From a virus (taxonomy: Duplodnaviria; Caudoviricetes), in the IMG/VR virus record IMGVR_UViG_3300042350_003801: a DNA stretch of 64,000 nt; one strand, given 5' to 3'. The notes beneath the pieces were generated by a model. That model did no database searches, was not told the DNA's origin, and worked only from the letters and a program-made list of their open reading frames with translations. Of this stretch, positions 45,448 through 48,276 are shown in pieces. The position numbers and the translations under genes were made by a program. How positions within the stretch are numbered: position 1 is the stretch's first letter; every line of letters starts with the position of its first letter.

Positions 45448-45520
45448 AAAAAGGTGGTTTAACAAAACGATACTAACAGACGGCGGGCAGTTTGGGAGAT
45501 CAAGTGGCCAGTCTTAAAAC

Positions 45521-45538
45521 TGTCACCTACGATCTTGC
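45521..45538. repeat. 18-bp direct repeat bracketing lysS (partner at 47051-47068)
   Basis: tgtcacctacgatcttgc vs tgtcacttacgatcttgc (17/18). Confidence 0.85.
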
Positions 45539-47016
45539 TCAGGTTTTACTAATGGAAAGGCTATTACATCACGAATTGACGGATTATCAGTAAGGAGCAT
45601 TACCAAACGATCAATACCAATACCAAGACCGCCACAAGGAGGCATCCCAACCTCTAAAGCCTGAATAAAATCCTCATCAATAGTTTGTGCTTCGGGGTCT
45701 CCCAATCTGTGTCGTTCTTGTTGAATCTCCAAACGGTTTAACTGTTCAACTGGATCAATAAGTTCGCTAAAAGCATTCGCAGTTTCTCTTCCAACAATAA
45801 ATAACTCAAATCTTTCAACGAATCCTGGCTTACTACGATGTGAGCGAGCTAAGGGAGAAACTTCAACCGGATAATCAATCACAAAGGTTGGTTGAATTAA
45901 AGTTTCTTCTACTCTTTGTTCAAATGTAGATACCATCAGTCGTCCAAGAGAATCAGCATTACTTGGAACATCTAATCCCTTTGAGCACATTGCAATGACC
46001 GCATCTTCCCTAGTTTCAAAACTTGTAAAATCAAGTCCGGTTATTTCATTAACCAATTCAGTCATAGAGACCCTCCGCCAAGGTGGAGTTAAATTGATTG
46101 GTTGCCCCTGATAAATAATCTCTGTTTCCCCAGATGCAAAAACTATCATTTCCTCAGTGAGATTCATCATATCATAATAATCTGAATATGCCTTATAAAT
46201 TTCAACTGAAGTAAACTCTGGATTATGGCGGGTACTGATTCCCTCATTGCGGAAAATTCGGCCAAGTTCATAAACTTTTTCAAAGCCCCCGACCACCATT
46301 CGCTTAAGATGTAACTCTGTTGCGATTCTCAGCGTAAGAGGAATATCAAGGGCATTATGATGCGTCTCAAAAGGGAGAGCATCTGCTCCACCAACAGTGG
46401 GATTTAAAACAGGAGTTTCGATCTCTAAAAATCCCTTATCATCCAGCCAGCGGCGAATGCTGCTGACAATATTCGCTCTACGGCGAAATGTTTCCCGACT
46501 GCGCGAAGAAGTGATTAAATCTAAATAACGGCGGCGATAACGGGTCTCAACGTTCGCAAGACCGTGCCACTTATCCGGCAAAGGCTGTAATGACTTACTG
46601 AGCATCTGCCAGTCTTTTAGTTTTACAGAAAGTTCACCACGATTAGTGCGTTTAATAGAACCGCTCACACCAATCCAGTCACCGATATCAACTAAGGTTG
46701 TAATCTGATTAAAGCAATCTGTGCCATTATCCCGTAAAAATGCCATATCGACATAGACTTGTATCGTTCCACCTTCATCGGCTAGAGTTAGGAAAGATAG
46801 TTTCCCCATAATTCTTCGGGCAATAACTCTGCCAGCAACTGTAACCTCCTGCTCACACTCTTCACCGTTGATTAAATTTGCATGAATTATATGCAATTCA
46901 GATGCACTATGACTAACAGTGAAATTAATTGCATATGGTGTTTTGCCAATACTCTCAAGAGCGCGAGCTTTTTCCAACCGAGTTTCTCTTAAGTCTGATA
47001 AGTTTTTAGAAGTCAT
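45523..47016 (-). CDS. lysS: lysyl-tRNA synthetase (class II), full length
   Basis: OB-fold anticodon domain, [53 protein letters not shown]. Confidence 0.97.
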
Positions 47017-47052
47017 TTTAGTTTCGTGTTTTGAATAGTAATTTAAAAAATG

Positions 47053-48276
47053 TCACTTACGATCTTGCATAATCGGGATTTCTCCGTTTTCATAAACGCT
47101 TTCAACGGTAGAATGAATTGTATCTGAAACTGCCTGAAGATTCTTATTGTAAACGGGAATGATTACCTTCCCCTCCGGTTTCAAATAACTTTCATAGTCT
47201 CCAACCTCAAGTGTTCCTTCTTCAATAGCCTTTGAATCTTCAGTAGAGATACGCAAGGTTCTTCCGATGTTTTGGACCAACTTAATAAGATTGAGTTGTC
47301 GCATCAAAAGAACAGCATCCAAAGATTTAACGTTGATTCCTTCTCCAAGAATAGAGTAGTTAAGAATCACATACTTACGCTCAGTGGAACTTCCAAGTTC
47401 ATCTAGAACTTCAAAGAACTTATCGCGTTCAATCTTTTGACCATTATGAAATGCCCCGTGATGTGCCGTAATATGAAGAAGGTCATAACCAAGTTCTTCT
47501 AGTTTTACTGCAAAGTTGGTTTCACTTAACATTTCCATCATCTTTTTTGTTGACTTAACGCATACAAGCAGTTTAGACAAGTCATATTCTTGGATAATAT
47601 TCAAAATATCATCCGCATCGTGTTGAGGTTGCCTTTCATCAATCCATTCAAGAGGATGTGAAATAACTCTCGGCTTAAGAATGTAACCCCCTATAATTAA
47701 CTCAGAAGCAGTTGCTTTTGCAATGATACTACCATAAACAGAATCATTCATTCCAGCCTTCTTGATTGTTGAACTAAATCTTGGAGTTGCGGTAAAATGA
47801 TAACAACGTTTAGTGGTCTCGCTGACATTCTTTACATACTCGTGAAACCCTGCAGATGTTGAGTTGTGCGACTCATCAAACATAAAGGTATCTACCTTAA
47901 TGCCCGATGCATAAATCTTCTTTAAGGAATGATAGGTTGCAAAGATTAGTTTATGGTGGGTCTTATGAATCTCAGTCCACTCTTTAATCGTTTTTGCATT
48001 GGTGGTATGATAATGCCTTACCTTGCCGTTTTTTGTGTGAACGTGTAGAAACTTGGCATTGTCAATATGCTTACCATAATCAAACGATAGTTGGGAAGCA
48101 AGAAGAATCCTTGGTGCAACAACAACTACAGTTTGCGGTTCATCTTTTTCAAACTCTCGTTTAGTATCAAAAATCTGAACATTAGTTTTCCCGGCACCAG
48201 TTGCCATTACAATGATGCCACGGTCTGTTTCAGAAAGCACAACAAGTGCTTGCTCTTGATGAGGACGGAGTTGCAT
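47053..48276 (-). CDS. superfamily II helicase (type III Res-like)
   Basis: ATGAGKT, DESH, TATP, GEGI, QNIGRTLR. Confidence 0.9.
   Translation of the reverse strand: MQLRPHQEQALVVLSETDRGIIVMATGAGKTNVQIFDTKREFEKDEPQTVVVVAPRILLASQLSFDYGKHIDNAKFLHVHTKNGKVRHYHTTNAKTIKEWTEIHKTHHKLIFATYHSLKKIYASGIKVDTFMFDESHNSTSAGFHEYVKNVSETTKRCYHFTATPRFSSTIKKAGMNDSVYGSIIAKATASELIIGGYILKPRVISHPLEWIDERQPQHDADDILNIIQEYDLSKLLVCVKSTKKMMEMLSETNFAVKLEELGYDLLHITAHHGAFHNGQKIERDKFFEVLDELGSSTERKYVILNYSILGEGINVKSLDAVLLMRQLNLIKLVQNIGRTLRISTEDSKAIEEGTLEVGDYESYLKPEGKVIIPVYNKNLQAVSDTIHSTVESVYENGEIPIMQDRK

Follow-up and report, generated by a model that had tools for sequence, protein, structure and literature searches.

The 64,000-nt window analysed here (the whole stretch of DNA taken from the virus record IMGVR_UViG_3300042350_003801; Duplodnaviria, Caudoviricetes) contains lysS, a complete gene for a class II lysyl-tRNA synthetase (LysRS), between a helicase gene and the palindrome that precedes the next gene. 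The locus raises the question of how a cellular enzyme entered a phage genome at this point and why this particular synthetase is kept. The explanation considered likely, on the comparisons described below, is that a host lysS was inserted once, long ago, at the end of the helicase gene, has since persisted as a presence/absence polymorphism, and raises lysyl-tRNA charging.

The repeat at two stop codons and the empty site

The SF2 DNA helicase (47053-48276, minus strand; 407 aa; Pfam ResIII, DEAD and Helicase_C; PHROG 16, DNA helicase) ends in MQDRK, and the 497-aa LysRS (45523-47016, minus strand) ends in PEQDRR; every gene around the locus lies on the minus strand. Both sets of final codons are enclosed, together with their TGA stops, by the copies of a direct repeat. 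The left copy, GCAAGATCGTAAGTGACA (47051-47068, minus strand), spans the four final codons of the helicase, its TGA stop and the bases CA, and the right copy, GCAAGATCGTAGGTGACA (45521-45538, minus strand), gives the lysS tail, its stop and the left arm of the palindrome. The copies are identical at 17 of 18 positions, the single difference being AAG versus AGG, and if slight decay is allowed the likeness extends 4-7 bases more, into the left arm and loop of the palindrome. The motif GCAAGATCGTA[A/G]GTGACA occurs twice in the window, at the helicase stop and at the lysS stop. Likewise, the 18-mer GCAAGATCGTARGTGACA is found at 45521-45538 and 47051-47068, with no third site in the 64 kb when up to 3 mismatches are allowed; shuffled sequence gave a mean of 0.03 matches, and two matches were obtained in 0 of 100 shuffles. 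An earlier interpretation made from the DNA letters alone (hereafter, the sequence-only reading) had attributed the shared protein endings to an 18-bp direct repeat, which is confirmed by copies that are exactly placed and unique in the window.

The helicase and lysS are separated by a gap of 36 nt, most of which is an AT-rich leader of 34 nt (47017-47050, minus strand) between the left repeat and the lysS ATG. This leader has no promoter cassette, and part of it (AATTAC...) is common to a second lysS lineage, represented by contig L009. The sequence-only reading had also described the GTGACA arm as intact at the lysS end and decayed at the helicase end. Behind the helicase copy there is indeed neither a right arm nor a -10 hexamer, but "intact" was slightly generous, the palindrome at the lysS end agreeing with the window consensus GTGCCAGTT-N4-AACTGGCAC at 13 of 16 positions.

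Relatives were gathered by a protein search with the helicase against lake metagenomes, which returned thousands of homologues, and their contigs were then compared; close homologues, with 82-94% identity, are present in lake metagenome contigs. As in the window, lysS and both repeats are present in contigs L003 and L004, whose helicases are 94% identical to that of the window. In six assemblies of related lake phages the site is empty, with helicase tail, palindrome and next gene in succession, and three allele types can be told apart: L005 and L006 (helicase identity 93%), L016-L019 (93%), and L007 and L008 (90%). The helicases of these alleles end in MQD[N/R/S]K, with the TGA stop within GTGACA, followed directly by the rest of the palindrome, the spacer and the next gene.

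Of the 60 nt that precede the repeat in the empty alleles, 50-54 agree with the helicase flank of the window and 31-34 with the lysS 3' end; of the 80 nt behind it in L016 and L005, 62-65 agree with the DNA that follows lysS and 41-43 with the lysS leader. The left flank therefore fits the helicase in all the empty allele types and the right flank fits the DNA after lysS in two of the three; in the third, divergence begins right behind the palindrome. In a BLAST alignment of L016 with the window, the 22 nt at 5262-5283 of L016 pair once with 47068-47047 and once with 45538-45517. Taken strictly, the duplicated target is thus 18 nt long; with some decay of the left copy accepted, it is about 22-25 nt and reaches the loop of the palindrome.

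The direction of the duplication can be read from the protein ends. Picocyanobacterial LysRS proteins end in IAFPLLRPE plus 5-25 variable residues, with the QDRR end in none of them, and the phage LysRS is host-like up to PE and carries the helicase tail from there on. Since the MQDxK tail also occurs in helicases of phages without lysS, the duplicated piece comes from the helicase and not from lysS, and the QDRR terminus of LysRS is a copy of the helicase tail produced by the target duplication. Farther relatives, with helicases 82% and 68% identical, have no lysS either (the 68% one on contigs of ~249 kb assembled three times), which indicates that the empty state is ancestral. Judged from these alignments, lysS is an insertion with a target duplication, with the repeat exactly at both insertion boundaries. 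The sequence-only reading had proposed such an insertion at the palindrome and had suggested a search for empty-site relatives; these exist (L005-L008 and L016-L019), with the repeat positioned at the boundaries. One helicase relative in IMG/VR stops inside the helicase, so that the insertion site is outside its sequence, and the sequenced-phage collection holds no close relative at the DNA level.

An artefact was also considered, either as a host-phage chimaeric contig or as two 18-mers that are alike by chance through a shared palindrome arm. Metagenome assemblies can be chimaeric and GTGACA is a common palindrome arm. This explanation has a negligible probability, however: lysS has phage composition, with a third-position GC content (GC3) of 0.30, the filled arrangement recurs in independent samples and assemblies, single contigs of several runs bridge both junctions, and these two sites are the only ones at which 11 of the 12 bases preceding GTGACA agree.

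Origin, age and use of the phage LysRS

The LysRS is full length and includes the N-terminal OB-fold anticodon-binding domain (PF01336, E 1.1e-16, residues 58-139) and the class II D/K/N catalytic core (PF00152, tRNA-synt_2, E 1.3e-85). Residues 5-491 are collinear with residues 4-491 of PDB 3A74 (E 1e-151), with motifs 1-3 intact and the conserved motifs FRNEG...HNPEFT and GLGIGIDRL shared with that structure. The best non-phage matches are from freshwater Synechococcus, Cyanobium and Vulcanococcus (68-73% identity), followed by Bacillota at ~50%. In a maximum-likelihood tree the three phage LysRS form one clade (100/100) within the picocyanobacterial clade (100/99), on a long stem (0.61). 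The description of a full-length, host-type lysS in the sequence-only reading agrees with this tree, an analysis that it had itself suggested, and with the complete domains. In the sequenced-phage collection the LysRS matches were at most 50% identical, and many were unannotated fragments resembling host DNA. Additionally, the 80-kb IMG/VR contig L002 encodes at 43-1491 a LysRS that is sister to that of Ruminococcus in the tree, so that an unrelated phage captured this enzyme independently.

The gene has fully taken on phage composition, with a GC3 of 0.30 for lysS and 0.33 for the helicase versus 0.84-0.91 for lysS of the freshwater relatives. The ratio of nonsynonymous to synonymous substitution rates (dN/dS) of lysS is 0.078 in all three comparisons and that of the helicase 0.06-0.07, and the synonymous divergence (dS) between the two phage lysS lineages is 1.05, versus 0.70 between their helicases. 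The low dN/dS denotes strong purifying selection, and together with a GC3 of 0.30 and a dS of ~1 between lineages it points to a capture that is old and maintained rather than recent. From its full-length class II motifs and a dN/dS as low as that of the helicase, the phage LysRS is evidently an enzyme in use, and it is predicted to charge tRNA-Lys, which the dN/dS supports indirectly.

The second lineage, contigs L009 and L010, has a LysRS 85% identical to that of the window at the same location. In L009 the lysS stop is right behind PE; after it come GACAGCAAGTGACA and the palindrome, where the helicase tail can be recognised in diverged form, and the repeat copy at the helicase end is decayed (...GACAACAAATAAAC). 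Since in both lineages the right junction falls behind the PE codons and the leader starts with AATTAC, one ancestral insertion is indicated and not two. Genomes with and without lysS are mixed in the helicase tree. Over 5.3 kb, the filled L009 and the empty L016 share 97.7% identity, up to a break nine bases before the helicase stop, inside the repeat, and the window and L003 have lysS genes that are 97.9% identical and helicases that are only 90% identical. Together, the contrast between lysS and the helicase and the break of identity inside the repeat indicate that homologous exchange between co-infecting phages moves or removes lysS.

For the retention of this synthetase, amino acid demand offers a rationale. 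Host usage was estimated from the ORFs of ten loci (65-71% GC) in those freshwater picocyanobacteria that are closest to the phage in the LysRS tree. Lysine makes up 6.2% of residues in the window open reading frames (ORFs) and 1.6% in the host-type ORFs, a ratio of 3.9 that is the highest of the 20 amino acids, followed by Asn (3.1) and Tyr (2.7); the AAA share of Lys codons is 65% in the phage and 23% in the host-type ORFs. Experiments in a GC-rich Synechococcus showed that the availability of tRNAs for AT-rich codons limits how well a T4-like cyanophage is translated (PMC11726456). Here it is proposed that a host LysRS capacity tuned to a lysine-poor proteome would be a bottleneck, and that the phage LysRS likely raises lysyl-tRNA charging. 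The choice of LysRS would then follow from an AT-rich phage needing ~4x the lysine of its host, the largest excess among the twenty amino acids.

A different role, towards which the sequence-only reading had leaned, is as part of an anti-defence toolkit for tRNA, in which LysRS would recharge or shield tRNA-Lys under attack by PrrC or RloC, acting together with a ligase, a kinase, a phosphoesterase and a CCA enzyme. Such genes are present in the window: an Rnl-type RNA ligase (37917-39404, minus strand; PHROG 968), a PNK-like kinase (36319-36774, minus strand; AAA_33), a metallophosphoesterase (35558-36253, minus strand; Metallophos), a nucleotidyltransferase of the PolyA_pol/CCA-adding type (19310-20086, minus strand) and a SerRS catalytic domain (49689-50498, minus strand). 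T4 Pnkp and Rnl1 mend tRNA-Lys cut by PrrC, and the ligase, kinase and phosphatase functions of that kind of repair are all found here, 6-10 kb from lysS; the RNA ligase, kinase, phosphoesterase and CCA-type enzyme are a possible heal-and-seal set for tRNA. The OB domain of LysRS, furthermore, binds the anticodon loop. The ligase set is, however, kept in relatives L007 and L011 without lysS, which argues that the toolkit genes and lysS are not coupled, and a cleaved tRNA is beyond repair by LysRS. Lysine demand is the simpler rationale, accounting for the choice of LysRS without any defence system, so that the defence role is ranked lower and considered unlikely.

The SerRS-derived ORF (269 aa; Pfam tRNA-synt_2b, 3e-39) corresponds to residues ~157-425 of a solved SerRS (E 2e-98) and has no N-terminal coiled-coil arm. 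It is the second gene derived from an aminoacyl-tRNA synthetase in the window, 2.7 kb upstream of lysS, and is missing from L003, which has other genes in its place; TGTGCCAG lies in its 3' end, and a degenerate palindrome comes ~30 nt later. In relatives L003, L005 and L007, genes for RlaP (PF10127) and for a protein with an Xre_MbcA_ParS_C domain were found upstream of the helicase.

Taken as a sequence of events, the insertion of a host lysS would have proceeded as follows. The phage would be a large lake-water myovirus infecting GC-rich picocyanobacteria of the Cyanobium or freshwater Synechococcus type, with the window as part of its accessory ("hyperplastic") early-gene region. Once, long ago, a host lysS would have been inserted at the very end of the helicase gene, trimmed to its conserved core and set directly before the palindrome-plus-promoter cassette of the next gene. 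In the process, a piece of 18-25 nt would have been duplicated, made up of the last 12 helicase bases, the stop codon and 6-13 bases from the start of the palindrome, so that the helicase end was kept, LysRS gained a four-residue copy of it and the downstream cassette remained whole. The duplication probably arose in a one-off illegitimate event, when a staggered break was repaired or the template was switched at the palindrome. Afterwards, homologous recombination between co-infecting phages, with the cassettes and flanking genes as homology, would have shifted lysS on and off nearly identical backbones.

Several points weigh against this explanation. The duplication of 18-25 nt exceeds the usual target duplications of transposons, its mechanism is an inference, and no enzyme goes with it. 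The copies of the repeat are identical at 17 of 18 positions despite the old insertion, and they co-vary by lineage, with GAT CGT in both copies in the window and GAC AAC and GAC AGC in L009; a database LysRS that is 99% identical (P0121) ends in QDRK. Gene conversion, a more recent re-insertion or selection would be needed to account for this likeness and co-variation. The LysRS tree and the habitat are the sole grounds for the choice of host, the host amino acid usage comes from ~22,000 residues of crudely called ORFs, and there is no tRNA gene within the window.

Palindromic promoter cassettes and the route of capture

The palindrome behind lysS is an imperfect one of 23 nt, GTGACAGTT-TTAA-GACTGGCCAC (45504-45526, minus strand), and forms the upstream part of the next gene's promoter cassette. 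The same cassette has a -10-like hexamer, TAGTAT, preceded by TGT (45470-45475, minus strand), 28 nt after the palindrome. This variant of the palindrome is kept in every relative, including the empty sites of L005, L007 and L016. The 22-nt dyad GTGCCAGTT-N4-AACTGGCAC and its near variants occur at 19 sites in the window (e.g., 1451-1472, 16820-16841, 41155-41176 and 52136-52157). In the scanned range of 20-33 nt, a -10-like hexamer follows all 19 palindromes, and in 17 of them the distance is 25-31 nt; random positions gave 6.4 of 19, with a maximum of 14 in 2,000 trials. An ORF starts 53-67 nt downstream of 16 of the 19, and the TGA within the left arm GTGACA serves in several copies as the stop codon of the gene before it.

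The perfect copies of the palindrome fold strongly (-24 kcal/mol, z -4.6), whereas variants such as GTGACAC...CTGGCAC, and the copy at lysS, fold no better than shuffles. No T-run was found behind the palindromes at the window sites and no -35 consensus was evident in the spacers; a generic promoter scan found no more than in shuffles. A role as an RNA hairpin or terminator was rejected, since frequent arm variants break the hairpin without compensation and a T-run is missing; the same observations point to a putative site for a dimeric factor in an early promoter of fixed geometry. The palindrome is accordingly named here a probable operator or activator site of early promoters, from its repeated spacing to the -10-like hexamer. 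As there is neither a right arm nor a -10 behind the helicase copy, lysS lacks a cassette and probably closes the early operon of the helicase, which starts near 49650, with the helicase as its penultimate gene and transcription predicted to read through.

The next gene (45006-45447, minus strand; ATG at 45447) belongs to a family of small proteins, GPNY, with about 20 copies at 7300-49200 (e.g., 43249-43662, 44228-44611, 48276-48677 and 48674-49120). These proteins have 120-150 aa, with conserved end frames (...GPNY...) and variable middles, and their copy number varies across all related contigs; no match was found in Pfam or in PHROGs. A tandem duplication of 67 nt (about 45233-45366) splits this GPNY gene into the overlapping ORFs 45292-45465 and 45006-45350. 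The contig of a relative skips exactly 67 nt there, and the k-mer depth of the repeat unit is approximately double in the probable source run, so that the duplication seems real and not a misassembly.

The sequence-only reading had gone further and suggested that the palindrome sites mediate gene capture. In a developed form of this idea, lysS travels as a small circle with one copy of the repeat and integrates at the junction of helicase tail and palindrome, the direct repeats being hybrid sites. Mini-circles of promoter-early stem-loop (PeSL) cassettes were shown in T4-type coliphages and proposed to integrate in the same way (PMC2839356). In the present contigs, homology between L005 and L007 stops right behind the palindrome, a 75-aa gene (51848-52075) lies between two cassette copies of ~50 nt and has another location with no cassette in L003, backbones that are 97.7% identical occur with and without lysS and lose their identity inside the repeat, and the repeat is better kept than the age of lysS predicts. 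On the other hand, two-thirds of the repeat (12 nt) is helicase coding sequence and only 6-13 nt come from the cassette, the upstream 12 nt are duplicated at 0 of the 18 other palindromes of the window, and 18-25 nt is short for homologous recombination. A circle would also explain the spread among phages and not the first capture from the host. Joints that skip lysS or close a circle were not found in the contigs of four runs, which is a weak test, as it covered contigs only. Capture of lysS by this route is therefore doubtful. The part of the claim that stands is that the repeated promoter cassettes are module borders and recombination sites, an idea already described and supported here by the L005/L007 break and the 75-aa gene; the less probable part is capture at the palindromes as such, the other 18 having no duplicated tail and the repeat being mostly helicase coding sequence. 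The region of the 75-aa gene (51690-52160, minus strand) has direct cassette copies AACTGGCACAGCACT...TATTGTAA at its borders and represents a PeSL-like module move.

A classical mobile element would leave direct repeats as the target-site duplication of a transposon, as the att core of an integrase or through a TnpB/IS200-IS605 homing cassette. Direct repeats that restore the 3' end of a target gene are typical of integrase att sites, and the window does contain two TnpB genes (OrfB_IS605 / Cas12f-like TNB; 33814-35010 and 54836-56014), both on the plus strand, opposite to nearly all other genes. The insert (45539-47050), however, consists of the 34-nt leader and lysS only, with no transposase, integrase, recombinase, terminal inverted repeats or omega-RNA, which makes such an element very improbable. 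TnpB as a guide was rejected separately: the tnpB flanks share at most 10-mers with either junction and neither tnpB is adjacent. To our knowledge, IS200/IS605 elements make no target duplication. In relatives, TnpB genes occur at other positions (L007 9176-10372; L009 from 17253 onward).

A broader proposal joins both subjects: the palindromes would be hot spots of breaks or stalled forks at which host translation genes (LysRS and the SerRS domain) are taken up repeatedly, and the cassettes would circulate as a tRNA repair-and-recharge system against host immunity directed at tRNA. This proposal is regarded as rather improbable. The single old insertion of host lysS, with later exchange by homologous recombination, remains the preferred explanation.

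Comparison with known systems

The closest parallel for the cassettes are the PeSL elements and mini-circles of T4-type phages (Arbiol et al. 2010, PMC2839356; Comeau et al. 2014, PMC4122927). Similarly to these, the window has repeated intergenic regulatory cassettes before small genes in the accessory (hyperplastic) early region of a large myovirus, the cassette often takes in the stop codon of the preceding gene, indels between close relatives border cassettes, and one gene lies between two copies. Unlike PeSL, the cassettes here have a 22-nt dyad at a fixed distance from the -10 with no recognisable -35, many copies have no stable hairpin, and the lysS repeat, rather than being two whole cassettes, derives for the most part from the coding region of the gene next to it. 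The att sites of integrases at the 3' ends of tRNA and other genes are also comparable, in their flanking direct repeats and the recreated end of the target gene; in contrast to the elements that use them, this insert has one cargo gene only and no integrase.

Aminoacyl-tRNA synthetase genes occur in jumbo or huge phages and in giant viruses, and the present case resembles those of jumbo phages in having a viral synthetase, accompanied by further genes for translation and tRNA, in a genome of ~250 kb. For the Microcystis phage PhiMa05, a LysU-like gene and a TrpRS gene have been listed (PMC8093824). The window LysRS differs from those of the PhiMa05 type (at most 50% identical) by its 70-72% identity to the presumed host clade, in which it is nested, and by an insertion site, empty alleles and a target duplication that are all visible.

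Host-derived auxiliary genes in variable regions are standard for cyanophages. Like the auxiliary and tRNA genes of T4-like cyanophages (PMC11726456), lysS is host-derived, lies in a variable region and plausibly eases a translation bottleneck caused by the gap in composition; unlike those tRNA genes, it encodes the charging enzyme. No report of a LysRS in a T4-like cyanophage was found in the literature searched. The lysine excess provides a concrete, testable reason for keeping LysRS in an AT-rich phage of a GC-rich cyanobacterium, and as phages with and without lysS on near-identical backbones coexist in lakes, its benefit would be measurable without genetic engineering once they are isolated.

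Compared with these systems, the case is a well-documented one of known kinds rather than a new mechanism. New here are a LysRS of the host clade in this phage group, filled and empty alleles that are exact to the base, a duplication of 18-22 nt that put a helicase tail on the enzyme, and a measured lysine excess as grounds for the choice of amino acid. Lytic phages seldom offer natural alleles with and without a captured host gene whose junctions can be read to the base, and those described here reveal the entry point, the duplicated piece and a cellular enzyme that bears a fragment of a phage helicase as its tail.

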